From a virus (lineage: Duplodnaviria > Heunggongvirae > Uroviricota > Caudoviricetes): a stretch of DNA of 54,127 nucleotides. The position numbers were made by a program, and so were the translations under genes. The notes beneath the pieces were generated by a model that saw only the letters and a program-made list of their open reading frames with translations, did not search any database and had not been told where the DNA came from. Location of the stretch: IMG/VR virus record IMGVR_UViG_3300028327_000833, positions 98,516 to 152,642 of that record; one strand, given 5' to 3'. Shown here one piece after another: positions 37,690 to 52,338 of the stretch (position 1 is its first letter; every line of letters begins with the position of its first letter).

Positions 37690-38035
37690 GTTCCACCGCC
37701 TGATTGATGTGTAACGTCGGGCCGTACTGACACTGAATAACCAGATTTAACCGGCACTGGTCTCCGACGTTGTTTATCGAGCTCTGATTTTCAATCAGAG
37801 TAAGCCGCCGGTCGAAATCTTTTATCGCGACCGCCAAATCGCGCATTGACATGATGCTTGCGTCGTTGAACTCGAACAAATACCGCGACAATCCGATTTC
37901 GTTGCGCCGGCCCCAATAAATATCGTCCCTGTCGAAGAACAAGGCGTTCGTAACCGCCTGTCTTAGACATTGGTCGTTATGGAGCAGAACCTTGTCGCGG
38001 TTGCTCTCCCAAGCGCAATTTATGTCCGTGGCCAT
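37682..38035 (-). CDS. Baseplate wedge protein gp25-like
   Basis: CLRQAVTNAL...IGLSRYLFE...AIKDFDRRL; adjacent to gp6. Confidence 0.8.
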   Translation of the reverse strand: MATDINCAWESNRDKVLLHNDQCLRQAVTNALFFDRDDIYWGRRNEIGLSRYLFEFNDASIMSMRDLAVAIKDFDRRLTLIENQSSINNVGDQCRLNLVIQCQYGPTLHINQAVERV

Positions 38036-38075
38036 TTCCAGAAGATAACGAAAAACGCGGATTTTCGCAAACGTC

Positions 38076-38624
38076 TCAGGTTACGACCGGCCCTGCGGCG
38101 GCTCCGTAGTAGACTCCGCCGTGACTTCCAGACGCAGGCGTCCGGCTCCACACCGCAGGGTTCAAAACGCTCGCCACGATCTGACGGGCGAACTCGTCCA
38201 TGACCGCCTCCCAGTCGCCGCCCAGCGCTCCGAGCGCCCCCTGGTTCAGCATAGACCCTCCGATAACGGACGGAAGCAGAAAAGGCGCGGGAGTCAGCGC
38301 GAATCCTGCGGGAGGTTTGAAGAGCGCGGTACTCAGCATGGTTTCGAATTGCAGCTTAAACAGCGTAAACGCGCTATCTCCCGCGCGTTCGAGCGGAAAC
38401 TGCGTCAGCGTTCCTGGAATTGTAATTTCGGCTTTGAACGTAACGACGGGGTCGGGAGATCCGTTCCCCGACACAGCCGCCCATACGTATGTAAGCACGG
38501 TGTTCTCGGTTAGGTAAGTTTTTAATACTTTGGTAAACGTATCGAACGCTTTCCGCGGATTATCAATGCCGCGCATTTCGCTCTTTAACTTATCGGCAAG
38601 ACGCGTGTGGGGCGTTAAAGGCAT
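38076..38624 (-). CDS. Hypothetical baseplate-region protein
   Basis: Between gp5-like and gp25-like genes. Confidence 0.6.
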   Translation of the reverse strand: MPLTPHTRLADKLKSEMRGIDNPRKAFDTFTKVLKTYLTENTVLTYVWAAVSGNGSPDPVVTFKAEITIPGTLTQFPLERAGDSAFTLFKLQFETMLSTALFKPPAGFALTPAPFLLPSVIGGSMLNQGALGALGGDWEAVMDEFARQIVASVLNPAVWSRTPASGSHGGVYYGAAAGPVVT

Positions 38625-38628
38625 AGTG

Positions 38629-39309
38629 CTATCCTAAAGCGGTGTCGCTTCTGTGCGGAGCGCCTGTGAAAAGACAGTTCGGAACCGCGCATAACGCCCC
38701 GTTCGGCGACGGCACGCCCGTTCCGGTATGCTCTAACACAACTTTGCCGTTTCCATGAATGTTGACAGTGCCTTTAGCGTTCACTTTAATATCATTATCG
38801 CCGGTTATGTCTAAATTGCCTTTGCCGTCCATCTTAATCTTGGACTTGCCTTTGTTTACGTTAATCTCGAACTCGCAACCGTCTTTCTTGCCGTCCGCGC
38901 AAACATCGAGCTCGAATTTGCTCCCGTCGTACTTCCCTTTGATAAAGCTGTTATGGAAGTTCAGCACGAACTCTTTGCCGAGGTCGGCGTCGAAAACCTT
39001 GCTTTTGGCGCTGACCGTATGCCCGACGTAAAAGCCCTCATAGACGCTCCCCTGGAAGACGACGGTCACGAAGTCGTCTTTCTGCGGGCGCGCGTACAAT
39101 CCGCACGACGGCATCATCATCAGCTTCGGCAAATCTGCGTCGGGGATACCTGTTTTGGCGTCGCCGAAGAGGGCTTCGATGCGCGCGGTGATTCGCCCTT
39201 GGGCGTCTTTTTCGCCGTCGTCCACGACTTTGCCGACCCAGAAGCCCTTGAGGGCGTCCCCGTTTTCGAGGACGGCGAGACGATCTATTCCGAGAAGATT
39301 TGGATTCAC
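38629..39309 (-). CDS. Baseplate central spike (gp5/gpV OB-fold) with C-terminal metal-binding tip
   Basis: WVGKVVDD...QGRITARI...PQKDDFVTVVF...FYVG; beta-helix-like repeats; CAVPNCLFTGAPH; GTG start with SD GGAG. Confidence 0.85.
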   Translation of the reverse strand: MNPNLLGIDRLAVLENGDALKGFWVGKVVDDGEKDAQGRITARIEALFGDAKTGIPDADLPKLMMMPSCGLYARPQKDDFVTVVFQGSVYEGFYVGHTVSAKSKVFDADLGKEFVLNFHNSFIKGKYDGSKFELDVCADGKKDGCEFEINVNKGKSKIKMDGKGNLDITGDNDIKVNAKGTVNIHGNGKVVLEHTGTGVPSPNGALCAVPNCLFTGAPHRSDTALG

Positions 39310-39356
39310 GGTAGGGTCTCCGAACCGTTAAGTTTGAGTTTCAACCTCAAAATAGG

Positions 39357-40636
39357 ATAGTTACCTCTTTTGTTATCAAATCTTGCAAGCGTAATAACCT
39401 GCATGTTTTTTAACAAAATCGGTTTTGAACCCGGAACCATATTTTCCGAGGGAGAAACGGCCAAGGGTGTTCAAGGCGCCGACCATATCGGCTTTGCCTG
39501 CATAGCCACAAGACAGACACCTGAACGCCTCTTGACTTAACCGGTTCCCCTTCTCGACGTGACCGCAGACCGGACAAGTAGTAGAGTTGTAGAAAGCAGG
39601 TACCCGCCGTAAGGAAACACCGTTTTCTTCAGCAAGCATTTCTACCCTGCTGTCCAACAACCCGCTTGTCCAGCCGTCGAGAACTGAACGCATACTTTTA
39701 GTTAAGCGTCCTTTAACTTTGCTGTTCCTTTTAATATCCTTGTTATTTTCAATACAGATTAATTTAGTTTCTTTAAAAGGCAACTCTTTACATGTTTTAG
39801 AAATGTAATATTTAATCTCTTTTTTACATTTCTTCCACGACCTTGAGTTGCGTTTTTTCCGTTTCAGTTTCTGTAAAAGCGGCTTTATCCGGTCGCCGTA
39901 AACAACACCCTCGTCAGAGGTTAAAAGGTTCGTGGCTCCGGGGTCTAACCCTATAATATCACCTTCCGTTTTCTTAGGGACGTCAGCTTCAAAAGAAAAC
40001 TGGATATATTTATCTGTTAAAATAACGGAACTTGAAAGTTTGCCTTTAGAGTTCCATTTTTCAAAACAACGGTTCTTTTTCAAAGGTATCGCTATTTTAA
40101 CCGCCCGTTGTCTGCTATCGAAACATTTTAACTCTACTAGAAGATCGAAGTCTTCTAAATCAGGGTTAAGGTTTACAGATACCAGCTGACTCGACAAAAC
40201 GGCTTTTGTTTTGCAATGTTTAGGTTTCGTATACGGCTGTTTTAACTCTTTGCAACTTTTAATCTGGCCGTCTACCATACCGTAGGTTTCAGCTAAAACG
40301 ACTTGTTTAGCTCTGGCCGTCAGCCACGTTTCCGGTACTTTGTAATTTTTATGGACATCGAACTTAGAGTCGCCGTCTTCTATACGGTTTTTTATACCGT
40401 CTATAGCGGAAGACGCGACAGCGTCATACTCAGACAGCAAGTCTTTTATACGGCCGGACTTGCTTCCGGTTATCCACTTCGAGAAGTGGCATTTGACGCT
40501 TCTGTTGAACTTCATTTTTCAAGTTCCTTTAAGAGAGTCTAAAAATTTTAGCCTGACTATATAGTTTCATAACTCAAAGCTAACATGTTTGACAATAAAA
40601 AACAATATTTGATAATAAAACCTATAAATGTATTAA
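39357..40636 (-). mobile_element. TnpA-less tnpB element, copy 1 (1280 bp)
   Basis: Boundaries from identity with copy 2: follows ATGTAT, ends GGTAACTAT (3-nt TAT ambiguity); left-end hairpin ATGTATT-T-AATACAT. Confidence 0.85.
39376..40515 (-). CDS. tnpB: TnpB RNA-guided nuclease
   Basis: RuvC I GLDPG, RuvC II CIENN, Zn finger CPVCG...CLSCG, RuvC III ADMVGALN. Confidence 0.95.
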   Translation of the reverse strand: MKFNRSVKCHFSKWITGSKSGRIKDLLSEYDAVASSAIDGIKNRIEDGDSKFDVHKNYKVPETWLTARAKQVVLAETYGMVDGQIKSCKELKQPYTKPKHCKTKAVLSSQLVSVNLNPDLEDFDLLVELKCFDSRQRAVKIAIPLKKNRCFEKWNSKGKLSSSVILTDKYIQFSFEADVPKKTEGDIIGLDPGATNLLTSDEGVVYGDRIKPLLQKLKRKKRNSRSWKKCKKEIKYYISKTCKELPFKETKLICIENNKDIKRNSKVKGRLTKSMRSVLDGWTSGLLDSRVEMLAEENGVSLRRVPAFYNSTTCPVCGHVEKGNRLSQEAFRCLSCGYAGKADMVGALNTLGRFSLGKYGSGFKTDFVKKHAGYYACKI

Positions 40637-40666
40637 ATACATAGGCTTTGTAGTCGTCGAGCTCTA

Positions 40667-40855
40667 TCATTTGAGCTGTTTCTCCGAATCGATTTTCTTT
40701 TTTAGCGCCACAATCTCCGCTTCGGTCAAATCGGCTATCGAAACGGCGTCCTTTTTTATGTCAACGATGACGTATTGCAAAGCATCGTAGTCCCAGCAAA
40801 GCAGTTTTCCGTCAGGGCGTTTAACGCAACTTTTTAGAAAATCGTTTAAACTCAT
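40667..40855 (-). CDS. Small hypothetical protein (paralogue of 40852-41088)
   Basis: CVKRPDGKLLCWDYDALQY; SD GGAGG. Confidence 0.7.
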   Translation of the reverse strand: MSLNDFLKSCVKRPDGKLLCWDYDALQYVIVDIKKDAVSIADLTEAEIVALKKKIDSEKQLK

Positions 40856-41088
40856 ATAACCTCCGGTGTCTGATTGGACGGCTTCTTGACCATCCTATCC
40901 AACAATTTCTTCGCCTCTTCGGGCGTCACCTTGTCAGGGCTTATCGGTTCAGCTTGAAACCGAACTAAACGATAGTCCTTAGCTTCATCGTCCCAGCAAA
41001 TCGCCGTCCCGTCCGGGCGGGACACGCAGTTAGCGAGCAACTTGTCAATCCCCACAACAAACCCCCGACATAAAAGTTTAAAAAACAA
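40852..41088 (-). CDS. Small hypothetical protein (paralogue of 40667-40855)
   Basis: CVSRPDGTAICWDDEAKDY; start may be GTG 41055. Confidence 0.65.
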   Translation of the reverse strand: MFFKLLCRGFVVGIDKLLANCVSRPDGTAICWDDEAKDYRLVRFQAEPISPDKVTPEEAKKLLDRMVKKPSNQTPEVI

Positions 41089-41245
41089 TGTGCCTATAAC
41101 CTAAAGATAGCTAAATTTAGGCAAAAAACCAACTCCAAGAAGCGGGTTTAATCCATAAAACCCTCAAATTCTACTCGAAAAAGCATTTTTTGCAGATTTT
41201 TCGTTTTTTTTTGTTTTAGGTCTTGACAAAAAACTTACGCTATTT

Positions 41246-41383
41246 AACTCGCCCTAATCCTCGCCCGAATATGCCCCGAATTCCTCGAAAAACCGCGTTT
41301 CGAGGCCGTTCGAGGGGGTCAGGGGCCGGGCCGTCGGGCGCGTCCGAGGGCGACGGCGGTCTCCGGGGTGACTTGCGTATATT
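41246..41383 (+). repeat. Dispersed GC-rich intergenic repeat, copy A
   Basis: Near-identical to 42488-42633; pieces at 24341-24357, 25065-25139 and 22604-22698. Confidence 0.9.
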
Positions 41384-41501
41384 GGATCTGATGCTGTTCA
41401 GGGCAGGAAGACAGGAGACTTCGTTTTATCCGGGGTGACGGCATTATATTGGTTTTGATAGTCGGCGGATGATTTTAAACAATTTCAACAAGGAGGTTAT
41501 T

Positions 41502-41849
41502 ATGGACAAGTTCGAGTTCGTATCGTACAACGAAGAAGACCGCGACGACGCGCTCTGTTTCGGGAGGATGGTATTCAAGTACAACGGACGGCCGTGCAAA
41601 ACCGGGACAGGTTTCCTATGTCCGCACAATACCTTTGAGGTATGTCGCGTCAAGACTTGGACAACGCAGGATATTGATTGGAAATCTATTCACGCAAATA
41701 TCTCAGAAGATGAGAAACCGCTATTCGTAAAATTGGTGGTAGATCACGTGATACCGCTAATCTCGAATTGTGATTGTTGCAGCAAACCGCATGACGGTTA
41801 TATAGACGGCGTAAACTTATCAAATAAGCACATTAAGGTGCTTGACTAG
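41502..41849 (+). CDS. Hypothetical moron protein
   Basis: ATG 41502 with SD AGGAGG; two CCGGGGTGAC-N5-TATATT motifs upstream. Confidence 0.7.
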   Translation: MDKFEFVSYNEEDRDDALCFGRMVFKYNGRPCKTGTGFLCPHNTFEVCRVKTWTTQDIDWKSIHANISEDEKPLFVKLVVDHVIPLISNCDCCSKPHDGYIDGVNLSNKHIKVLD

Positions 41850-42393
41850 ACAAAGATCCGTTGAAATCACTGTAATCGCCACGAAATTTACGCAACAGCG
41901 GCTTATATTCACTACTAGCATCCCGTGAGAGGTAAGCCCCTTTTATGGGATGAAATCTTATCGCGCCCGGATTGTCGTCTGCGAACTTTTTAGCAACGGC
42001 AATCGCTTTCTGCGGCGCATTTTTTATTCGCAACAAGCGCTGATCCAATTCCTTTTTAGTGACGGCGTCAGCATTTGCACGATCGACTTTAAATTTTTTC
42101 TGTGCATTTCTAAACCTCATTTTTGTATTCGCTATCTTGGTCTGATCTTCGACATCCTGTATCTCTTTGTCGAGATCGGGATCGTTTCTATGCCGATTTT
42201 TGAAAGACTGTAAAACCGCAAGCTGATCGCTCGGATGCCCGCTGACGTTCCTTGCAAGACTAGTGGCGGCGGCATCAACGCACCTTCTAAAGGAAACCTC
42301 GTCAACCCGTCTGCCGTCCGCATCGCGAGCGTCAATATTCACGTGTTCGTATAGCTTCAAAATCCGTCCTACCGCCGCGTCGAGTTCATCCAT
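41833..42393 (-). CDS. Basic protein with shared MDELDAxVGRILKLYE leader
   Basis: Leader shared with two other ORFs; unrelated C-terminus. Confidence 0.7.
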   Translation of the reverse strand: MDELDAAVGRILKLYEHVNIDARDADGRRVDEVSFRRCVDAAATSLARNVSGHPSDQLAVLQSFKNRHRNDPDLDKEIQDVEDQTKIANTKMRFRNAQKKFKVDRANADAVTKKELDQRLLRIKNAPQKAIAVAKKFADDNPGAIRFHPIKGAYLSRDASSEYKPLLRKFRGDYSDFNGSLSSQAP

Positions 42394-42487
42394 AGAAAGG
42401 TTCCCTTCAGGCTATAATATAGTCACGAAACAACGTTTTTGCTTAAAAAATCTAATTTTTTTTCAAGGTCGGCTCTGGAACCCATAA

Positions 42488-42633
42488 AACTCGCCCTAAT
42501 CCTCGCCCGAATATGCCCCGAATTCCTCGAAAAACCGCGTTTCGAGGCAGTCCGAGGGGTTCGGGGGCGGGCCGTCGGGCGCATCCGAGGGCGACGGCGG
42601 TCGCGGCGGTCTCCGGGGTGACTGTATTATATT
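42488..42633 (+). repeat. Dispersed GC-rich intergenic repeat, copy B
   Basis: Near-identical to 41246-41383; bracketed by imperfect inverted repeat TATAATATAGTCAC (42413-42426) / GTGACTGTATTATA. Confidence 0.9.
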
Positions 42634-42682
42634 TGACTTTGGAGGGCGGCAGATAATATTTTAATCTAAAAAGGAGGCGGTT

Positions 42683-43306
42683 ATGACGGATTCATTAAAG
42701 GCGGCGGCGGACACGGTTGCGGAAGTTGCGCGGCAGGTCGACGGAGACCCGTATAGCATTAAAGTGGTCGGATGGCTTGTTTTAACGCTTACTGCGATAT
42801 TTGCTTTTAAATTTGCCGCAGAATGTATCATTAAGAAAAAATTTGTTCTTGGTGCAGGTACTTCACTTTACGCCCATGACTACAGGCCTATTTTAGAAGT
42901 ATTGTGGGCGTTGACCGCTATCACTACCGGAATTATTATTCGAGTGCTAATCGCAGACGGGACAAATGATAAAGCCGCACATATACTATTTGTCGGTATA
43001 GGGCTGTTGTCGGCGGCATCAGTCGGCTTTTTTGTATCCGAATATCTAACCGTAGTATACAAAGGGTCTTTAAATAAACCGCTATACTATATTAACAAAA
43101 CTATCGCGGAATGGACTTGGGTGTGCTGGCTGGTTTATAGCGGCGGCAGTTTTATCTCAAACTTTGTTAATTTAGGTGACGAATTTGAACCGCTTACCTG
43201 GAAAGATTGCTTTACTTTTACGTTTATATTACCTATCGCGGTATTTATACTTAAAGTTAGTTTAATCGCTATTAAATATCGTAGTTTAAAATCGCACAAC
43301 CGTTAA
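42683..43306 (+). CDS. Polytopic membrane protein (about 5 TM), moron
   Basis: Five hydrophobic stretches; AT-rich; SD AAGGAGG; own promoter motif and terminator. Confidence 0.75.
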   Translation: MTDSLKAAADTVAEVARQVDGDPYSIKVVGWLVLTLTAIFAFKFAAECIIKKKFVLGAGTSLYAHDYRPILEVLWALTAITTGIIIRVLIADGTNDKAAHILFVGIGLLSAASVGFFVSEYLTVVYKGSLNKPLYYINKTIAEWTWVCWLVYSGGSFISNFVNLGDEFEPLTWKDCFTFTFILPIAVFILKVSLIAIKYRSLKSHNR

Positions 43307-43319
43307 TGGTTGTGCGATT
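43290..43319. terminator. Hairpin between convergent genes (bidirectional terminator candidate)
   Basis: Perfect 12-bp stem AATCGCACAACC/GGTTGTGCGATT. Confidence 0.65.
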
Positions 43320-43340
43320 AGTGTTATTTATTCTTAGCTA

Positions 43341-43691
43341 CTAGTGTCTAGGACGTTTTGCGCCGTGTATAAAATCATCCAAAAAACCTTTACCGGATAT
43401 TGCGGGTTTAGGTTTAAATTGCTGGTTACTGTCAGCAGGCTCAACTGTTCCTGAGTACGGTTTAATGCTAGTTTTGCCGGGCGGGGTTGTGGAATTGCCC
43501 ATAGCGTCATCCCTAATTTGATTGTCTCGCATTACTGGTTGCGAAGATACTCGATTGCTAATAGGAGAACTCTGAGTAGAATCCGTCTGCTCAGGCTGAC
43601 TGCTCACCGTTCCGAGCGCGGCTTCCTCGTCCACCTCGACATGCTCGTACAGCTTCAGAATCCTGCCGACGATTGCGTCTAACTCGTCCAT
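43341..43691 (-). CDS. Ser/Pro-rich protein with shared MDELDAxVGRILKLYE leader
   Basis: ATG 43691 with SD GAGG; leader shared. Confidence 0.7.
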   Translation of the reverse strand: MDELDAIVGRILKLYEHVEVDEEAALGTVSSQPEQTDSTQSSPISNRVSSQPVMRDNQIRDDAMGNSTTPPGKTSIKPYSGTVEPADSNQQFKPKPAISGKGFLDDFIHGAKRPRH

Positions 43692-43772
43692 AACGGCCTC
43701 GCGTTTATGAGATTTTATAAAATTTGGCAAGAAAACCGTTCCTTAAAACTCACTCAAACCTACTAAATCCTT

Positions 43773-43922
43773 ACAGTCGGCGCTTTAAACGTCCTTGGCC
43801 GCTTCTCCCTCGGAAAATATGGTTCCGGGTTCAAAACCGATTTTGTTAAAAAACATGCAGGTTATTACGCCTGCAAGATTTGATAACAAAATCGGTAACT
43901 ATCACCGTTAGTCTTTTACCAA
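43773..43922 (+). ncRNA. Stand-alone omega-RNA-like copy of the tnpB 3' end / right end, plus putative guide (43903-43922)
   Basis: About 130 bp homologous to the last part of both tnpB elements, opposite strand; 13-bp stem 43836-43848/43884-43896 and TGCAGG/CCTGCA inner stem; no tnpB ORF or left end. Confidence 0.7.
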
Positions 43923-46679
43923 CCGAACGTTGAACATATTGTCTTTTGACGTATTAAGGTTAGACGTATTCATGCCCGGATTGAACCTTATCATATAACC
44001 ATCTGTCGTTGGCGCACTCGGATATGGTGTAGACGTCCAGAATTTTGCATACGCGCCAATACTCGAATAGAAGTTATTCGATGACGGAGGAGTAACAGAA
44101 GTCGTGTCGCCTCCCGGTAAGACACAAAACCCATATCTATCTATTCCGTTATTGTTATTTGACCACCCGATGGTAGACATAAGGGATTTTGATACTTGCG
44201 TATTCCCGTTGGCTAACGTATCTCCATCTCCTATTATAGCTACTCGAAGATTAAACCACTCTGCATTAGTGGCTACGTGCCAGCCCGGAATACAAGCCTG
44301 TAGTGCTCCATCAAACGTGTATAACAGTCCATAATGACCGTAGTTTATCCGACTCCTGTCATACCACACTGCCTTTGTAGTGTCGTTTAGGTTATACTCC
44401 AAATTCTGCGCTAACCAAATGTTCCCGTCAGGCATACGTACTGTTCTGTATACCTTATTATCACGCGAGTCTTTTATGTACCCGAATATATCGCCCGTTA
44501 TTGACGGAGAGCCACCACCTCCAGACTGCGCAGGTGCGACGAACAGGCCGCCATCACTTCCTGTAGTTATTTGGTTATTCGCGTCGGTTGATACGGATGT
44601 CGCGCCCTCTATCCTTGCGAGGGTCTCGGTGACTATGCCACCGGAGTAGTTCATTCGCATTACCCTATATGTGCCGCTGGTCGCCACCGCAACTAATACT
44701 CTGTTGCTGTAGGCGACACTTAGCCAACTATTATTTTCCGTCGCCGCGACCGCTGTCCACGTTTGCCCGTTATCGGTGGAACGCATTACTCTGTTTGCGC
44801 CGGTACTCGCCACCGCTACAAATACCCCATTGCCGTAGGTGACACCGAACCACTGATTATTTGCAGCAGCCGCGACCGCTGTCCACGTTTGCCCATTGTC
44901 AACGGAGCGCATTACCCGATTTGTACCGTCATACGACACCGCGACGAATGTCCCGTTGCCGTAGGTGACACTGTACCAACTATTATTTGCAGCAGCCGCG
45001 ACCGCTGTCCACGTTTGCCCATTGTCAACGGAGCGCATTACCTGATTTGTACCGTCACCCGCCACCGCTACGAATGTCCCGTTGCCGTAGGTGACACTGT
45101 ACCAACTATTATTTTCCGTCGCCGCGACCGCTGTCCACGTTTGCCCATTGTTAACGGAGCGCATTACCCGATTTGTACCGTCATTCGACACCGCTACAAA
45201 CACCCCATTGCCGTAGGCGACATTGCGCCACTGATTATTTCCAGTCGCCGCAACCGCTGCCCACGTCGCCCCGTTATCGGTGGAACGCATTACCCGATTT
45301 GTACCGCTATTCGCCACCGCTACAAACACCCCATTGCCGTAGGCGACACTGCGCCAACCATTATTTTCAGCCGCCGTAACAGCCGTCCATGTTTGCCCGT
45401 TGTCAACGGAACGCATTACCCTATTTGTGCCGTCGGTCGCTACCGCGACAAACACCCCATTGCCGTAGGCGACACTGACCCACTGATTATTTTCAGCCGC
45501 CGCGACCGCCGTGTTGTTTAACACTATCTCCTCCACCCTCTTGACCAACGCCAAATACCCATTTGTCGTCATTGCGGTCGAAAGTATCAAGTCTCCAACT
45601 TGAACTTCCCGCCCTGCCGGAGGTGTAATTTCTACCATATCTTTCTCGCCGCCGATGGCAGTATTCAGCGCGGTGGGCGTAGTGTAGACGGAATACCCGT
45701 CCCTGCCGTCTTCGACATGCGTTTGGTCAGGCAGCGTATACTGGCCGCACACGTCAAGTTTAGTGTATCCGTAGTAAGTATTCGCACTGCCGTGCCACAG
45801 CATAAAGTATATCGTATAGGCTTTAAACATAACATCGCCGGGATTGACTTCGCCGTCGTTAATCATATCCAGCACGCGCTTGCCGTTTATCCAGAAGTGG
45901 GCGTTTGAGCTAATCGTCATCTCGACTTCATTAGTCTCGAAGAGGACGTCGCAATCAAACTGTACCGGAACTATCAGAGGCCGTCCCACTATCGGCGGCA
46001 GAAACTCCGCTTGGTTATTGTTGCCCGCTTTCACAAGCCCTTCGGAGACATATAAACGATCCCACGGCAGTGAATTTATCCACGAGTGCGGATAATACCT
46101 CGAAGCTACTGGACGCCATTGCCCGTCGGACGTCAGAAACGCCGAACCGTCCGCGCGATTCATCTGCGTATCCGCCTTAACGCCCGTATCCTCGCCGTTG
46201 ATTATCAGCCTGCGCTCGTACAACTCACTGGGCGCGTGGTCGTCAAGACTGAGTGAGGCTTCGGGCGAGGCTGACCCCCAAAACCAAATTAAAGCCATCT
46301 GAACGTCTTCCCACACTTCAACCGCGTTCTCGCCGTCGCCCTCGACCCGCCGCACCGCCGTTACCGCGACGAACCCGTCGCCGTAACGGCTCGGATCGAC
46401 GCCCGTGATCTCGCCGTACTCGTTGTAGCTGGCCCCCCACTCGACGGCTTTTTCGCGGGTGTAGAACCAATCTTTGGGAGACACCTTGCCCCACAAGTCC
46501 CCGTTGCCGATGTCGAAAGTGCGGTTCTCCGTTACCGCGGGAGCCCACATGACTTTGACGTCTACGGCCGCCGCCGAACCGCCGCCGTTCTGACCGACGA
46601 GGGCGTCGACGGCGTCTTTATTGTACCACTCTTGCTCTAATTTACGGCTTTTGATTAAACCAGGAACCGGTGCGTTCAT
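43908..46679 (-). CDS. Tail fibre / receptor-binding protein: seven 42-aa beta-propeller repeats and C-terminal FISUMP (Fib_succ_major) domain
   Basis: Repeats WxSVxYGNGxFVAV...RVMRSxDNGQTW; DSRDNKVYRTV...WLAQNL...YGLLY...GWHV...FWTST...NVRLVKD; ATG 46679 with SD GAGG. Confidence 0.85.
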   Translation of the reverse strand: MNAPVPGLIKSRKLEQEWYNKDAVDALVGQNGGGSAAAVDVKVMWAPAVTENRTFDIGNGDLWGKVSPKDWFYTREKAVEWGASYNEYGEITGVDPSRYGDGFVAVTAVRRVEGDGENAVEVWEDVQMALIWFWGSASPEASLSLDDHAPSELYERRLIINGEDTGVKADTQMNRADGSAFLTSDGQWRPVASRYYPHSWINSLPWDRLYVSEGLVKAGNNNQAEFLPPIVGRPLIVPVQFDCDVLFETNEVEMTISSNAHFWINGKRVLDMINDGEVNPGDVMFKAYTIYFMLWHGSANTYYGYTKLDVCGQYTLPDQTHVEDGRDGYSVYTTPTALNTAIGGEKDMVEITPPAGREVQVGDLILSTAMTTNGYLALVKRVEEIVLNNTAVAAAENNQWVSVAYGNGVFVAVATDGTNRVMRSVDNGQTWTAVTAAENNGWRSVAYGNGVFVAVANSGTNRVMRSTDNGATWAAVAATGNNQWRNVAYGNGVFVAVSNDGTNRVMRSVNNGQTWTAVAATENNSWYSVTYGNGTFVAVAGDGTNQVMRSVDNGQTWTAVAAAANNSWYSVTYGNGTFVAVSYDGTNRVMRSVDNGQTWTAVAAAANNQWFGVTYGNGVFVAVASTGANRVMRSTDNGQTWTAVAATENNSWLSVAYSNRVLVAVATSGTYRVMRMNYSGGIVTETLARIEGATSVSTDANNQITTGSDGGLFVAPAQSGGGGSPSITGDIFGYIKDSRDNKVYRTVRMPDGNIWLAQNLEYNLNDTTKAVWYDRSRINYGHYGLLYTFDGALQACIPGWHVATNAEWFNLRVAIIGDGDTLANGNTQVSKSLMSTIGWSNNNNGIDRYGFCVLPGGDTTSVTPPSSNNFYSSIGAYAKFWTSTPYPSAPTTDGYMIRFNPGMNTSNLNTSKDNMFNVRLVKD
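44655..45515 (-). repeat. Intragenic 126-bp tandem repeats (7 units)
   Basis: GTCCAC anchors at 44755, 44881, 45007 (period 126). Confidence 0.9.
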
Positions 46680-46728
46680 AAGCGCCTCTCTTACGGAAAA
46701 AGTTTCAGAAGTCAATCAAGTCTAAAGT

Positions 46729-46869
46729 TTACTCCGGTTTCTCCGGCCAAACAATGTTGTACGGATAATCGGGATGCTTCTCCGGGTGATGGCCGTCGGT
46801 ATCCCGCAGGTCGCTGCGATACTTCGCCCAAGCCGCCCGCTGTTGCGCGGAAATCGGCGCGTCATCCAA
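46729..46869 (-). pseudogene. C-terminal half of a tail-fibre assembly chaperone
   Basis: Not in track; DAPISAQQRAAWAKYRSDLRD...YPYNIVWPEKPE matches the WxxYRxxLRD...WPxxP signature; N-terminal half missing, only a TTG start. Confidence 0.6.
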
Positions 46870-46891
46870 ACGTGGAACGGCGCGAAAAAAC

Positions 46892-47374
46892 TTAAGTTAT
46901 CGGCTCGAAAACCAAGTCGCCCCATATATCGTCTTTTAAAGCGTCGATCGTTACCCCGGAAGACGTCAACCCGCCTCCCGCGGTAATTACAGGGATTTCG
47001 TCTCCGTGAGAAGAGCCGAGCTTATCGATTTTATTGGAAAGATCGACCTTCTCGAACACGTGGAACAGCGCCCAAGCAAGCGCGCCGGTCTCCTCGTTGA
47101 TTCCGGTGATCTGATAAATCGCCGCGTCGCCTCCATTAGTCTCGTCCGCCCGCACCCAAGTGAAATCGTTGACGGTCGGCGCGACGGTGAAACCTGATTT
47201 ATTGGTCGGCAAGACGGCCTTGGTCGCTACCGACGCGGGAACGGTTTTGCTTCCGAGATCGGTCAGATTTTGAATCCTCGCGCGCAGGTCAGCAGTCAAC
47301 TGATCCACATACGCGTCGTTGTACCACGACTGCTCTAACTTGGTGCTGCTGATTTTACCTATAACTGTAGCCAT
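46892..47374 (-). CDS. Tail-associated protein
   Basis: KLEQSWYND motif shared with 46679 fibre; TVNDFTWVR module shared with 32017-34044; SD AGGAGG. Confidence 0.65.
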   Translation of the reverse strand: MATVIGKISSTKLEQSWYNDAYVDQLTADLRARIQNLTDLGSKTVPASVATKAVLPTNKSGFTVAPTVNDFTWVRADETNGGDAAIYQITGINEETGALAWALFHVFEKVDLSNKIDKLGSSHGDEIPVITAGGGLTSSGVTIDALKDDIWGDLVFEPIT

Positions 47375-47405
47375 AACCTACCTCCTTATTATAGTTTAAG
47401 AATTT

Positions 47406-47684
47406 TTAGGTTAATTCCTCGAAAACTAAATCGTCGCCGCCGCCTCCGCCTCCCGAACCGACAGCGGGATCGGGAATGAAGTTATCGCGCGCAATCCCGC
47501 CCACAAAGCGGTAATACCGCTGTTCGGATTTAATGTAGATCTGGAGACCGTCATACCGGCGGGCGTTCGATACGCCGCCCTGAGCCGCAGGCAGAAAAAC
47601 CGCGTCCACGGTTTCGTACAGCAGCCTGTCATCCACCGGCTCGCCGTTGCCTATCTTAAGCCCCCCGCCCAAAGAAATCGCCAT
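47406..47684 (-). CDS. Small tail-associated protein
   Basis: PVDDR...RYDGLQIYI...YY pattern; ends DLVFE like 46892-47374. Confidence 0.55.
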   Translation of the reverse strand: MAISLGGGLKIGNGEPVDDRLLYETVDAVFLPAAQGGVSNARRYDGLQIYIKSEQRYYRFVGGIARDNFIPDPAVGSGGGGGGDDLVFEELT

Positions 47685-47698
47685 AAAAACCTCCTATT

Positions 47699-48589
47699 TT
47701 AGAACACTGCTTTAAGCGTGACTCCGGTCGTCGGGCCGGCAGTCCACAGATAGCCCGTCAGACTCTGACCGCCGACTGTTACGGAATTAACCTGCGAGAA
47801 ACTGCTTAACGTGGTGGCGGTTAAACCCATGTCAAGAATGTCGGACGGTTTCTGAGTCAGGAAATAGAACGGACGGCCGCCTTCGTCTTCGTCAAGATGC
47901 GGCGTCACAAGCCAAGAAGACTGCGCCTGAGTTTTCGTAACCGCTTCGATGAAATCGAATATCGCGTCGCTTGTCTCAAAGGTTCCGCCCTCAACCGCCG
48001 ACAACTGGCGCGAGTGGTTAATCACCCCGTGATAACCGAACATTCCGGCGGGAGGCGTTACGACGACGGGTCTGTCTATAACCGCGCCGTAACTGACGAC
48101 GATCGTCATCACGGCCACGTTGCCGTCTTCGTTATTTCCGTCGACCGACGAACTGGAAACCGCGCCGCCGCTTCCGCCGGAGCCCGACACGGAAACCGTC
48201 GGAGGATTCTCCGGGTCGAAGTAATACCTGCCGGAGGGCGTAAGCGTAAACGTCGCCGTATAAGACGTTCCTTTGACGGCGGCCGCGTCCGCGGGGCTCC
48301 AAACCACGTCGGCGCGCCACCCGCTTCCGCCCGCCGCGCCTTTTAACGCGCCTCCCGTATACGGGGCGGCGGGGAGCGTGACCGAGCGTACCGCCCTCGG
48401 TTTGCTTGACGGGTCGTCGAGAAGCTGGTTGCCCTTTTCGCCCCACCAATACAGCCCGTCATAGTCTACGTTCTTCGGGACGCACGACAAAAAACTCTGC
48501 GCGCACAAAGACGCGTCAGGCCCCCAGTTCGGGTTCTCGAAAGTATCGGCGCGTTCCGCCTCAAATCCCCAAGGATCGATTCCGCTCAT
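47699..48589 (-). CDS. Putative virion surface protein with Ig-like domain
   Basis: GTSYTATFTLTP...YYF beta-rich domain; SD AGGAG; start 48589. Confidence 0.5.
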   Translation of the reverse strand: MSGIDPWGFEAERADTFENPNWGPDASLCAQSFLSCVPKNVDYDGLYWWGEKGNQLLDDPSSKPRAVRSVTLPAAPYTGGALKGAAGGSGWRADVVWSPADAAAVKGTSYTATFTLTPSGRYYFDPENPPTVSVSGSGGSGGAVSSSSVDGNNEDGNVAVMTIVVSYGAVIDRPVVVTPPAGMFGYHGVINHSRQLSAVEGGTFETSDAIFDFIEAVTKTQAQSSWLVTPHLDEDEGGRPFYFLTQKPSDILDMGLTATTLSSFSQVNSVTVGGQSLTGYLWTAGPTTGVTLKAVF

Positions 48590-48621
48590 GTCTGACTCCT
48601 TTTTATTGAACAAATTTTAAG

Positions 48622-48810
48622 TTACGCGTCCATCCACGGCAGCACGTTGGTGCCGCTCCACTCGTCGGCTTCGGCGGCGTTGTAGAACTCGGTCTGCGCC
48701 TCGGTGACGGCCGGGCCGCAGGTGATAGGATTAAGCCGGCAGTATGAATTGTCCATCGTCAAAGCGTCGACGGACGGAGTCTGCCCAGGTTCGGTAATTA
48801 TATCTTCCAT
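48622..48810 (-). CDS. Small acidic protein
   Basis: ATG 48810 with SD GGAG; late promoter motif 48854-48885. Confidence 0.6.
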   Translation of the reverse strand: MEDIITEPGQTPSVDALTMDNSYCRLNPITCGPAVTEAQTEFYNAAEADEWSGTNVLPWMDA

Positions 48811-48908
48811 AATCGGCTCCTTCAACAGTGTAAGACGGTTTTGCGTTATGTTCTTAAGATAACGAAATATGCGAAAATTAACAAATCCGCGCTTACGCGC
48901 CGCCCGCC

Positions 48909-49658
48909 TCAATATTCGTCTCTCATGTCCGACTGCATATCTATAAGTCTGTCCAATCCAGGGTTAGTCGTGACGCCGCGCCACAATTTAGCGAGATGCT
49001 TGCATAAGGCGGGCGTTTCGCGGCCGTTTCGAATCCTGCCGGGGCCCGGATCCGCGCGCGTCGTCGCGGCGTATTCCACCGACCCGGCAATGCGGCGCTG
49101 GCTTACGTTAAAATTTCTAAGAGCTTTCACGGCATGGTTCGGATACGCCAAGTTATATTTAAACGCTTCGCAGTCGCAGTAAACCTTGCCTTTCATATCC
49201 GGCCGCCAGCCGTCCTTTACCGTCGTTCTGTACACGGCGATTTCCGGGCGATGCTCGGTGCCCTTCGCGGTATTCACCACACGGCCGGTTATAACCAGCC
49301 CCGTTTTGTCGTCGACCAGCTCCGCCTTAACCCCCTCAAGCCGCAAAACTTCCAAATTCGACACGGGAACCTGTCTGCCGTGCGCAAACACGGGCTTCCC
49401 GTTTTTGTCTTTTTTCCAAGCGTTAGGAAAAACCCGCCGAAAAGACAAATCCATGTCGGAGACGTCGGTTCCGATGGAATCGACGCGGCGTTCCCGCTTC
49501 GACCTGGCTATCGACGGGGCTACGGAGGATTCGGCGACCGCAGACGGCTCAGGCGCGGCAGACCGCGCGACGCCGGCATAGCTCTGCCCGTACAGCCCGG
49601 ATCGCGCGGAAACGTCGGGCGTATAGTTACCTCTTTTATTATCAAACATTGCAGGCAT
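48909..49658 (-). CDS. SWIM-type zinc-finger protein; start codon lies inside tnpB element copy 2
   Basis: VYCDCEAFKY...N...ALCKHL; GGAGG-CTATT-ATG at 49668-49656. Confidence 0.75.
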   Translation of the reverse strand: MPAMFDNKRGNYTPDVSARSGLYGQSYAGVARSAAPEPSAVAESSVAPSIARSKRERRVDSIGTDVSDMDLSFRRVFPNAWKKDKNGKPVFAHGRQVPVSNLEVLRLEGVKAELVDDKTGLVITGRVVNTAKGTEHRPEIAVYRTTVKDGWRPDMKGKVYCDCEAFKYNLAYPNHAVKALRNFNVSQRRIAGSVEYAATTRADPGPGRIRNGRETPALCKHLAKLWRGVTTNPGLDRLIDMQSDMRDEY

Positions 49659-50902
49659 AATAGCCTCCATGTTTTTTAACAAAATCGGTTTTGAACCCGG
49701 AACCATATTTTCCGAGGGAGAAACGACCAAGGGTATTCAAGGCGCCGACCGTATCGGCTTTGTCTGCATAGTCACAAGACAGACACCTGAACGCCTCTTG
49801 ACTTAACCGGTTCCCCTTCTCGACGTGACCACAGACCGGACAAGTAGTGGAGTTGTGGAAAGCAGGCACCCGTCTGAGGGAAACACCGTTTTCCTCCGAG
49901 AGCATTTCTACCCTGCTGTCCAGCAACCCGCTTGTCCAGCCGTCGAGAACTGAACGCATATTTTTAGTTAAGCGTCCTTTAACTTTGCTGTTCCGTTTAA
50001 TATCCTTGTTATTTTCAATACAGATTAATTTAGTCTCCTTAAAAGGCAACTCTTTACATGTTTTAGAGACGTAATATTTAATTTCTTTTTTACACTTTTT
50101 CCACGACCTTGAGTTGCGTTTTTTCCGTTTCAGTTTCTGTAAAAGCGGCTTTATCCGGTCGCCGTAAATAACGCCCTCGTCTGAAGTTAAAAGGTTCGTG
50201 GCTCCGGGATCTAAACCTATAATACTGCCTTCCGTTTTCTTAGGGACGTCAGCTTCAAAAGAAAACTGGATGTATTTGTCTGTTAAAATAACGGAACTTG
50301 AAAGTTTGCCTTTAGAGTTCCACTTTTCAAAACAGCGGTTCTTTTTCAAGGGTATCGCTATTTTAACCGCTTTCCTTCTGCTATCGAAACATCTTAACTC
50401 AACTAAAAGATCGAACGCTTCTAATTGAGGGTTAAGGTTTACAGATGCTAAATTGCAAGACAAAACGGCTTTTGTTTTGCAATGTTTAGGTTTCGTATAC
50501 GGCTGTTTTAACTCTTTGCAACTTTTAATCTGGCCGTCTACCATACCATAGGTTTCGGCTAGAGCGACTTGTTTCGCTCTGGCCGTCAGCCACGTTTCCG
50601 GTACTTTGTAATTTTTAAAGACGTCGAATTTAGAGTCGCCGTCTTCTATACGGCTTTTTACAACGTCAATAGCTGAAGTCGCTACGGCGTCATATTCAGA
50701 AAGCAAGTCTTTTATACGGTCAGACTTGCTTCCGGTTATCCACTTCGAGAAGTGGCATTTGACGCTTCTGTTGAACTTCATTTTTCAAGTTCCTTTAAGA
50801 GAGTCTAAAAATTTTAGCCTGACTGTATAGTTTCATAACTCAAAGCTAACACATTTGATAACAAAAAACAATATTTGATAATAAAACCTATAAATGCATT
50901 AA
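49623..50902 (-). mobile_element. TnpA-less tnpB element, copy 2 (1280 bp)
   Basis: Same length and ends as copy 1. Confidence 0.85.
49642..50781 (-). CDS. tnpB: TnpB RNA-guided nuclease, copy 2
   Basis: GLDPG, CIENN, CPVCG...CLSCD, ADTVGALN; roughly 93-94% aa identity to copy 1 by manual comparison. Confidence 0.95.
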   Translation of the reverse strand: MKFNRSVKCHFSKWITGSKSDRIKDLLSEYDAVATSAIDVVKSRIEDGDSKFDVFKNYKVPETWLTARAKQVALAETYGMVDGQIKSCKELKQPYTKPKHCKTKAVLSCNLASVNLNPQLEAFDLLVELRCFDSRRKAVKIAIPLKKNRCFEKWNSKGKLSSSVILTDKYIQFSFEADVPKKTEGSIIGLDPGATNLLTSDEGVIYGDRIKPLLQKLKRKKRNSRSWKKCKKEIKYYVSKTCKELPFKETKLICIENNKDIKRNSKVKGRLTKNMRSVLDGWTSGLLDSRVEMLSEENGVSLRRVPAFHNSTTCPVCGHVEKGNRLSQEAFRCLSCDYADKADTVGALNTLGRFSLGKYGSGFKTDFVKKHGGYYACNV

Positions 50903-50907
50903 ATACA

Positions 50908-52338
50908 TTATTGGCCTCGATAGCCTTGCATGAACGACTGCATTATGCCGCGGTTGCCGTAACCGCCGCCTGACTGCTGATTCGCTTTTTTAAGCATCTT
51001 CAGCCTGTATGCCGGATTGGCCATCTTCGTCATGTTTTTGTACATGGCGCGGTTGTAATTCAGTTCGTCGCGCTCAAGTCCGCGCTGTCCTTTTTCCATC
51101 GCGCGGGCGTGTCTGTTCGCCGCGCTGTGCTTGTCTAAAAATCCGGCGAAACCCGTTTTTATCGCGCCGCTCGCGATGCCTTGCACTCTCTGCTGATGCG
51201 CGGCGTCGGCGGCTTGCTGTTTGGCGGCCTTAATGTCGCGCCCCTGCTGCACTTTCCTGAATCTGTCGGGATTCCGCGCCTGCATCAGCGTATCCTGCGC
51301 CTGTTGCCGCTGGTTCTTCATATCGGCGGTCTGATTGGCGATCTCGGTGTCGCGCTGCATCGCGTTCATCGCGTACTGCTGTTTGTTCTGCGCCGTCCAC
51401 AGCTTGTTGTACGCCCGCGCGCCAGCCAGCTTCTGCTTCGCGGCCGCGGCTCCGGCGTAATTCGCCCGTTTATCGTTCTCGCGGTTTAATTCGACGCCTG
51501 CTTGATTAGTCCTCGTGATATTGCGGGCGTCCTGGTTGACCAAAGTTTTGGCGGCCATGCCGATGCCGCGTCCGATGCCGCCTCCCGCAGCCCTGCGCCC
51601 TTGATTGAAAGCGTGGAACGCCGTCCGCAAGCCCTCGTCCGCTCCGCCCTCGAACAGCTGCACGCCGGCGTAATGGCGGTTTTTCACCGCCAAAGCGTCA
51701 GCTCTGCGTGAATCTCTTTCGGCTTTTCTATGAGTCCGCCGGATCGCGTCTTCGGCGCGCGCGTTGTCGCGGGCTTCTTTGGCCGCCGTCTCGCGTTCCA
51801 GTCGATCCGCCTTATTTTGCTGATGCCGCGCGTACGCTTTGTAAATCGGTTTTCCGACCGCGACGCCCGCTTTACAAAAGACTTTATAAGCGGCGTCTCC
51901 GGCCTTTTTCTTTAACTCGGGCGCTTTTTTACGGATGTACTCCCGCGCCTTTTCGTCGCCCTTTATGATTGTGTCCTGAAGTTTTCCGAAACCGTAAAAC
52001 GCTTTGCGTCCGAGACTTTTTAAACCGCCGTGCTTTTCGGGACGGCTTTCAGGTTCGGGCTCCGGTCGATTTTTATACTGTTTCTGCAGCTCTACGGCTT
52101 TCCCGCGCATATACCGCGCAATTTTAGCGCTCGCGCGACTCTTTTCCCCGTCTTTCCAAGCCTGACGCTTGTCTTTGCGCCCTTGCGCGACTTCCGTGCG
52201 CCACGCGTCGCGGGACATTTTGCGTCCGCTGGGCAGAATTACAGAGTCCCCGCGGTAGACCGGAGCGCCTCCGAAGTCGACGCCGCGTTCGTATACCGCG
52301 CAGCCGTACTGCTCGTTGAATTCGCTGATAAGAGACAT
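50908..52338 (-). CDS. Large basic Ala/Gln/Lys/Arg-rich protein, putative internal virion protein
   Basis: Low-complexity helical composition, AVYE and LFEG motifs; function inferred only. Confidence 0.5.
   Translation of the reverse strand: MSLISEFNEQYGCAVYERGVDFGGAPVYRGDSVILPSGRKMSRDAWRTEVAQGRKDKRQAWKDGEKSRASAKIARYMRGKAVELQKQYKNRPEPEPESRPEKHGGLKSLGRKAFYGFGKLQDTIIKGDEKAREYIRKKAPELKKKAGDAAYKVFCKAGVAVGKPIYKAYARHQQNKADRLERETAAKEARDNARAEDAIRRTHRKAERDSRRADALAVKNRHYAGVQLFEGGADEGLRTAFHAFNQGRRAAGGGIGRGIGMAAKTLVNQDARNITRTNQAGVELNRENDKRANYAGAAAAKQKLAGARAYNKLWTAQNKQQYAMNAMQRDTEIANQTADMKNQRQQAQDTLMQARNPDRFRKVQQGRDIKAAKQQAADAAHQQRVQGIASGAIKTGFAGFLDKHSAANRHARAMEKGQRGLERDELNYNRAMYKNMTKMANPAYRLKMLKKANQQSGGGYGNRGIMQSFMQGYRGQ

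Follow-up and report, generated by a model that had tools for sequence, protein, structure and literature searches.

Two tnpB repeats in a termite-gut phage are probably non-autonomous copies of a phage-resident IS607-family element

We analysed a 54,127-nt stretch of DNA, here called the window, from a virus of the class Caudoviricetes. The window is the final 54 kb of the 152,642-bp IMG/VR virus record IMGVR_UViG_3300028327_000833 (window coordinate = genome coordinate - 98,515), and the sequencing runs containing this phage record are termite-gut metagenomes from six studies, with no RNA run among those listed. It carries two tnpB repeats, copy A and copy B. We consider it probable that both are non-autonomous copies of a phage-resident insertion sequence (IS) of the IS607 family, made up of a serine transposase TnpA, the nuclease TnpB and an omega-RNA, that the tnpA-deleted form is mobilised in trans, and that TnpB cuts resealed empty sites.

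The window repeats belong to a six-copy family with one intact transposase

An earlier reading made from the letters of the window alone (the sequence-only reading) had described two catalytically intact tnpB repeats at this place. This was borne out in the coordinates, in the intact 379-aa open reading frames (ORFs) and in the RuvC and zinc-finger residues. Each copy is 1284 bp long, or 1280 bp when the target-derived GTAT is counted one time. The two differ at 96 of 1284 positions (92.5% identity), and their boundaries as repeats are sharp because the flanks are unrelated. In both copies 125 nt precede the tnpB ATG, and neither ORF has a stop or a frameshift. The G+C content of the element is 40%, against 52% for the genome, and a blastn comparison of copy A with a phage collection gave zero matches.

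The 152-kb record holds six full copies (c1 to c6), which start at genome positions 8341, 39057, 42415 and 63793 on the plus strand and at 137872 and 148138 on the minus strand, the last two being copies A (c5) and B (c6). Copy c4 (genome 63793-65574), 74 kb away, is 498 bp longer than the short copies and encodes an intact 185-aa serine TnpA with a YSRVSS motif. This protein (P0003) scores 161 bits against the IS607 transposase model NF033518 (cut-off 110) and matches the Resolvase family PF00239 at 4e-15. Its stop codon overlaps the start of tnpB (ATGA), which lies directly downstream on the same strand. The sequence-only reading had held that the repeats have no transposase. This is true for the window, where no full transposase was found inside copy A or B or elsewhere in the 54 kb, and false for the genome, where c4 encodes a cognate one. 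The genome search that it had proposed, for a Y1 or a serine TnpA, thus found the serine enzyme, and no Y1 TnpA is present in this phage.

The five short copies, both window copies included, have an identical internal deletion junction in tnpA and retain its first 13 codons. They must, on this evidence, descend from one tnpA-deleted element. Since one deleted element at five or more unrelated sites requires transposition, the simplest account is that TnpA was supplied in trans. A further 105-aa C-terminal TnpB fragment (P0106, ending ...ACNV) is encoded on the same 204,996-bp source contig, outside the 152,642-bp record, so the full phage genome probably has further copies. The 'provirus' trimming probably cut a larger phage genome with at least one additional copy.

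The window protein is a divergent but complete TnpB

The RuvC residues D191, E256 and D343 and the zinc-finger cysteines C314, C317, C333 and C336 are present in both copies and invariant across a family alignment of 42 members at 32-93% identity. In Pfam the protein matched only the Cas12f1-like TNB domain (PF07282, 49.5 bits against a cut-off of 26.3). The IS607_TnpB exception model gave only 15 bits, and the PHROGs label is transposase. An AlphaFold model built from the 42-member alignment reached a mean predicted local distance difference test (pLDDT) score of 91.3. In Foldseek it matched AsCas12f (E 3e-17), the TnpB of the IS607-type element ISFba1 (7e-13) and ISDra2 TnpB (5e-12), and also a mimivirus Fanzor2; the C-terminal part could be aligned to Cas12f and TnpB chains. 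The window protein is a divergent but complete TnpB.

In a profile search of IMG/VR, 79 loci had a TnpB of this clade, and several of these loci are multi-copy. An IS607 TnpA lies directly upstream in about 40% of these viral relatives, and the tnpA-tnpB arrangement of the full copy is common among them. No close relatives came up when IMG/VR was scanned with single proteins, namely TnpB, the 476-aa protein encoded next to copy B and the gp5-like protein next to copy A. A scan of genome contigs used one peptide pattern and gave four weak matches, which are uninformative on whether the TnpB clade is specific to viruses.

The ends point to a G-TA-T target

In the relatives of the family the left end reads G-GG-T and the right end AAC-GG-T (L014 and L015 in one viral contig, L016 and L060). 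The present element and L021, which has the most similar TnpA, read G-TA-T...AAC-TA-T, that is, TA replaces GG at both ends, and the two junctions share TAT here and GGT in the relatives. A serine recombinase requires identical core dinucleotides (PMC10690162), and the matched change from GG to TA at both ends is what this need would produce. The left end has one or two occurrences of the motif TTATCAAAT, and the right end has one in inverted orientation; the motif is a candidate TnpA-binding repeat.

Site B is empty in a distant relative (L093, JGI 3300073944). There the homologues of the 476-aa gene (56% identity) and of the SWIM-like gene (53%) abut as TAA-A-ATGTAC, and the second gene begins Met-Tyr. 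When the element is removed from site B of the present phage, the site reads TAATGTAT; left flank, GTAT and right flank together give TAATGTATACG, in which a stop codon overlaps ATG-TAT, a start that keeps the frame of the downstream gene. Restoring GTAT makes sense of the gene ends at other copies too. At c4 the upstream gene is then extended by three codons and its stop overlaps the start of the next gene (TAATG), at c1 a stop follows after nine codons, and at c2 ATG-GCG-AAG-TAT opens a 288-codon frame. The empty site of L093, these gene ends at c1, c2, c4 and c6 and the family-wide comparison of ends together indicate that the target is G-TA-T and that an empty site consists of flank, GTAT and flank.

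The 3' flanks are CCTATTTTGAGGTTGAAACT and ACGCCCGACGTTTCCGCGCG, and the guides that had been predicted from the sequence alone equal these true 3' flanks of copies A and B. The proposed target of ATGTAT followed by the guide held in part: it is the likely empty-site sequence for copies A and B, whereas its first two bases are not general and only GTA(T) is. The two bases before GTATTT are GA, AA, AA, CG, AT and AT in the six copies, so the AT of the window copies is a coincidence, and ATGTAT was rejected as a six-base target-adjacent motif (TAM) because four of the six copies differ in the first two bases. By analogy, the predicted TAM is NGTA, and the CTA of the element's own right end would give self/non-self discrimination at -3. 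In the Clostridium botulinum (Cbo) IStron the TAM TGGG is likewise opposed to TCGG at the right end (PMC10690162).

Insertion sites, empty alleles and the question of homing

Each of the six copies is no more than about 30 nt away from a gene start or stop (positions read from the flanks), compared with 11% of about 960 genomic GTAT sites, and all six point in the same direction as the neighbouring genes on an approximate greedy ORF map. The surviving insertions are strongly filtered: they persisted only where they are at gene boundaries and run with transcription. The insertion of copy B falls within codon 2 of the downstream SWIM-like gene, 1 nt past the stop of the 476-aa gene. The view that the elements are kept in the virion module as a special trait fits copies A and B, which have homologues of the baseplate wedge and hub as well as a 935-aa fibre among their neighbours; it did not survive for the family, because the four other copies are in other parts of the genome.

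Homing or restorative cutting is, by analogy, the most likely reason for the retention of TnpB here, all the more so with a probably excision-competent TnpA in the genome. A stronger version, close to that of the sequence-only reading, would have the elements independent of any transposase and spreading purely by RNA-guided homing, or serving as phage-versus-phage weapons against element-free relatives. Co-infecting phages do provide plentiful recombination templates, and TnpB and the 3' RNA are intact and constrained. Homing and restorative cutting have been established for IS607 and IS605 TnpB (PMC10690162, PMC10055086, reviewed in PMC13565253), with restorative homing published for IS607 TnpB and drive-like spread for IS605 elements (PMC10690162, PMC13565253). 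There are also more distant relatives (L093 and L094-L096) without an element at the two sites. Empty sites occur only in relatives at 53-65% amino-acid identity, such as L093, and relatives at 42-65% identity of the gp5-like protein have no element upstream of the gp5-like gene.

However, this stronger version is unlikely. The same genome encodes a cognate intact TnpA, and homing is unable to place one deletion derivative at five unrelated sites, which transposition can do. At site B, the empty relative L093 agrees with guide B in only about 7 of 16 positions (manual count) and would escape cutting. Near-identical populations are all occupied at the insertion sites, and no element-free close relative was found among the Logan and JGI contigs examined. 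Guides A and B have no other GTA-adjacent match in the phage's own genome that could serve as a secondary target. A role as a phage-versus-phage weapon is speculation.

A structured RNA overlaps the 3' end of tnpB

Two hairpins form in the last ~130 nt of the element, a small one within the ORF and a long terminal one that stops 6 nt short of the boundary. Variation within the genome is too low for testing this fold, and a covariance model of the last 135 nt was applied to 83 related IMG/VR loci. It matched at the tnpB 3' end, on the correct strand, in 30 of them. In the resulting alignment 79% of cells pair, compared with 31-50% when partners are slid, and 138 cells show changes on both sides of a pair, against at most 65 in the slid controls; the alignment is fitted to the model, so these counts lean toward structure, and the margin is nonetheless large. 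None of 500 shuffles reached the observed covariation score. The 3' 135 nt are thus a structured RNA that covaries across viral relatives and fits an omega-RNA scaffold.

The right ends occur in two forms. Copies c2, c3 and c6 have GGAGGCTAyTATG, a Shine-Dalgarno sequence and an ATG whose frame includes the terminal TAT codon (window 49623-49668 in c6; L004:2600-2660 in c2), where c1, c4, c5 and a solo right-end remnant have GCAGGTTATTACG. Two of the three, c2 and c6, separate genes from their starts, c2 after codon 3 of the 288-codon gene and c6 in codon 2 of the SWIM-like gene. A second in-frame ATG, which arises from K378N/I379V at the TnpB C-terminus, is unique to copy B. The remnant at 43776-43902 is on the strand opposite its neighbours, and its 3' flank covers the stop and final codons of the 935-aa fibre gene. 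In it a change of GA to TC converts a tandem G.A mismatch of the long terminal stem to a perfect 13-bp helix. The remnant might work as an orphan guide RNA with TnpB provided in trans, or it may be a mere deletion relic.

These features would suit a domesticated system, in which the TnpB copies and the orphan RNA serve the phage in RNA-guided regulation or defence, or in which the right ends provide translation starts for interrupted genes. TldR proteins are a precedent, as they show that TnpB relatives can be domesticated in phages (10.1101/2023.11.30.569447), and the improved stem beside the fibre gene and the decapitated genes at c2 and c6 point the same way. We regard domestication as very unlikely all the same. 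Unlike in TldR, the RuvC triad is intact; a working transposon context with TnpA and conserved ends is present; and the guides match only their own insertion sites. The Shine-Dalgarno and ATG haplotype is also found in c3, which has no need of it, so its link to decapitation is not significant (2/2 vs 1/4).

TnpB is under purifying selection in old, mosaic copies

The comparison of nonsynonymous and synonymous substitution rates (dN and dS) between copies, which the sequence-only reading had suggested, revealed purifying selection. In all 15 pairwise tnpB comparisons dN/dS was 0.09-0.16 at a dS of 0.19-0.30, and the window pair gave a dS of 0.274, a dN of 0.038 and a dN/dS of 0.14. A cognate TnpA nearby, accompanied by recent random copies, had been named as one of the findings that would refute the sequence-only reading. 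The genome does encode the TnpA, but with such dS values the copies are not recent.

The six copies have 174 variable sites and no stop or frameshift. At 100 of these sites the variant is common to two or three copies, in blocks with switching partners. The four-gamete test fails for 58% of informative site pairs. This mixed sharing identifies the copies as mosaics formed by gene conversion or recombination among the elements. Over the last 60 codons dS is about half that of the remaining ORF. A long invariant run in the 3' RNA region was considered as a special constraint within the genome and rejected, as equally long runs occur elsewhere in the ORF.

That the copies are inert relics, old and functionless insertions that have not decayed yet, would agree with their age, with the fixation of the insertion sites in all samples examined and with the decay of one copy to the 127-bp remnant, and is the least probable of the alternatives, given 174 variable sites without a stop or frameshift, a dN/dS near 0.1 and the conservation of the ends and of the RNA structure.

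In two ENA contigs, L008 (ERZ27257309, 9876-11159) and L009 (ERZ27257311, 9274-10557), the element is flanked on its left as in c6 or c5 and on its right as in c2, and it switches internally from c6- or c5-like to c2-like sequence. These contigs were rejected as independent relatives: they are the same phage (99.4-99.8% identity), and their elements occupy the same sites. As c2 is inverted relative to c5 and c6, a real recombination would invert about 100 kb. The joins could equally be assembly chimeras at shared k-mers or real recombinants.

Features of the window

The features of the two copies and of their neighbourhood are collected in Table 1. Pfam assigned no family to the SWIM-like gene at E<=0.01. 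Within the fibre gene the DNA is repetitive at a period of about 126 bp (44656-45512); the repeat number differs in an ENA contig, where the protein has 923 aa. A repeat of about 150 bp with 87% identity is found in opposite orientations at 41246-41386 and 42488-42636, and contigs from several termite-gut runs show joints and loose ends at 41357, 42598 and 43622, which points to a further small segment, mobile or variable, in the interval from copy A to the fibre gene.

The left ends of both copies (40589-40616 and 50855-50882, plus strand) contain a near-consensus sigma-70-like site, TTGACA or TTGATA, 16 nt and GATAAT, on the strand opposite tnpB and directed out of the element into the upstream gene. 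Consensus scans for promoters and terminators, these sites included, gave counts no higher than in shuffled sequence and were not used.

Table 1. Positions of the elements, their parts and neighbouring genes in window coordinates
Feature	Position	Strand	Description
gp5-like hub gene	38629-39309		downstream of copy A; copy A lies 47 nt upstream of its start
Predicted guide template, copy A	39337-39356	minus	3' flank, inside the 47-nt leader of the gp5-like hub gene
Copy A (c5)	39357-40640	minus	non-autonomous IS607-family element, tnpA deleted; 1284-bp constant block GTATTTAAT...GGTAACTAT
Putative omega-RNA scaffold, copy A	39357-39491	minus	last 135 nt, overlaps the tnpB 3' end
tnpB of copy A (P0001)	39376-40515	minus	379 aa, intact
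Left end of copy A	40516-40640	minus	subterminal motif TTATCAAAT, one variant of it and the 13-codon tnpA remnant
tnpA remnant, copy A	40529-40570	minus	13 codons, terminates at the common deletion junction
Solo right-end/omega-RNA-like remnant	43776-43902	plus	127 bp, element positions 1160-1286
Fibre-like gene	43908-46715	minus	935 aa; BNR/Sortilin-type repeats, C-terminal Fibrobacter succinogenes major domain
SWIM-like gene	48909-49625	minus	downstream of copy B; CxC...CxH (CDC...CKH) pattern
Predicted guide template, copy B	49603-49622	minus	codons 3-9 of the SWIM-like gene
Copy B (c6)	49623-50906	minus	second non-autonomous IS607-family element; 1284-bp constant block GTATTTAAT...GGTAACTAT
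Putative omega-RNA scaffold, copy B	49623-49757	minus	also GGAGG and ATG in frame with the decapitated downstream gene
tnpB of copy B (P0002)	49642-50781	minus	379 aa, intact
tnpA remnant, copy B	50795-50836	minus	13 codons

Discussion

We propose the following history for the family. An ancestral full element would have lost about 500 bp of tnpA, and the deleted form, mobilised in trans by the TnpA of a full-length copy like that at genome 63793-65574, would have reached at least five sites. Insertion would occur at G-TA-T targets, with a TA core in place of the family's usual GG, and survival would be limited to insertions that are at gene boundaries and follow the direction of transcription. 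Each copy would retain TnpB and the structured 3' RNA, whose guide would come from the 3' flank. From the example of characterised IS607 and IS605 elements, the complex of TnpB and omega-RNA would be expected to cut the resealed empty site (a TAM of about NGTA, then T and the flank). The break would be repaired from an occupied sister genome, and the element would thus be retained despite excision by TnpA. The same cutting would convert element-free alleles in co-infection.

Several observations weigh against this reading. In Logan contigs from four termite-gut DNA runs, searched over 36500-43700, both junctions of copy A are bridged, none of the contigs skips the element and no new site appears; Logan contigs drop rare variants, and a rare excision would be invisible in them. 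The exact empty-site strings for A and B were not found in JGI metagenome contigs either. GTA is next to the left end in all six copies, with unconserved 5' flanks beyond it, and the assignments of the TA core and the TAM, which come from sequence comparison only, are probable. The NCBIfam guided_TnpB model scores TnpB at 82 bits, under its cut-off of 100. A search of Rfam over 39000-51200 at E<=1 returned two chance-level matches only and no RAGATH-18. Lastly, the copies are old and mosaic, and selection may act on the family pool via gene conversion and not on each copy.

A more far-reaching idea builds on the same parts. The TA-core IS607 lineage might act as a set of multi-locus RNA-guided gene drives in a large phage, cutting the empty alleles of co-infecting relatives and dragging neighbouring structural genes along (marker exclusion), while the ribosome-binding site and start in the right end would re-start decapitated genes, so that insertions into the starts of essential genes become tolerable. 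We hold this to be a doubtful possibility.

Insertion sequences are usually scarce in phage genomes. A phage that has a TnpB element in six or more diverged and selectively maintained copies, together with the transposase, would be a natural test of homing-endonuclease-like action in phage crosses. The TnpB is compact at 379 aa, and its predicted TAM is short and AT-containing (GTA), not G-rich. The clean set of junctions and the one empty relative site lead to a testable G-TA-T target rule for an IS607 relative that appears to have given up the canonical GG core.

Comparison with known systems

The closest known systems are those of the IS607 family, such as Helicobacter pylori IS607, the C. 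botulinum IStron (PMC10690162) and ISFba1 (PDB 8iaz). Shared with them are a serine TnpA with an N-terminal helix-turn-helix whose stop overlaps the tnpB start, the lack of terminal inverted repeats, a short sequence common to both junctions and the TnpB fold. The left flank has G and the right end C at -3 (GTA/CTA here, TGGG/TCGG in Cbo), and a structured RNA overlaps the tnpB 3' end, with a guide that would here be derived from the flank. Unlike these systems, the present element has a probable TA core in place of the usual GG and no group I intron, and its putative omega-RNA is unmatched in Rfam. It is also resident in a phage, in at least six diverged copies of which five are one tnpA-deleted derivative.

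TnpB elements of the IS200/IS605 group (ISDra2; those of G. stearothermophilus, Meers et al., PMC10055086) likewise encode an RNA-guided RuvC nuclease with the empty donor site as its target for cleavage, an activity predicted here, and have many tnpA-less genomic copies with tnpB only. Their transposase is a Y1 HUH enzyme acting on single-stranded DNA hairpin ends, whereas the present element has as its partner a serine recombinase, which would by analogy move a double-stranded DNA circle, and no Y1 TnpA.

The homing endonuclease genes of T-even phages (Seg, Mob and I-TevI, free-standing or intron-borne) are similarly selfish nuclease genes between conserved phage genes, with an expected spread in co-infection by cutting of the empty allele and copying from the occupied one. 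They differ in that recognition is by the protein, and here it is predicted to go through a guide RNA and a short TAM. The present element also has a transposase route to new sites, and no presence/absence polymorphism was found among its close relatives.

Single tnpB genes have been described in phages, namely in cyanophage A-1(L) (10.64898/2026.02.14.705889) and the Thermus Lalka phages (PMC11437467), and giant viruses carry Fanzor2/IS607 (PMC3627910). These published virus-borne nucleases of the TnpB family are single copies or identical to host copies, whereas here a diverged multi-copy family with its own TnpA resides in one phage genome. The kind of system is unchanged by this: it is an IS607-family transposon, unusually prolific and phage-borne, and not a new type of weapon.

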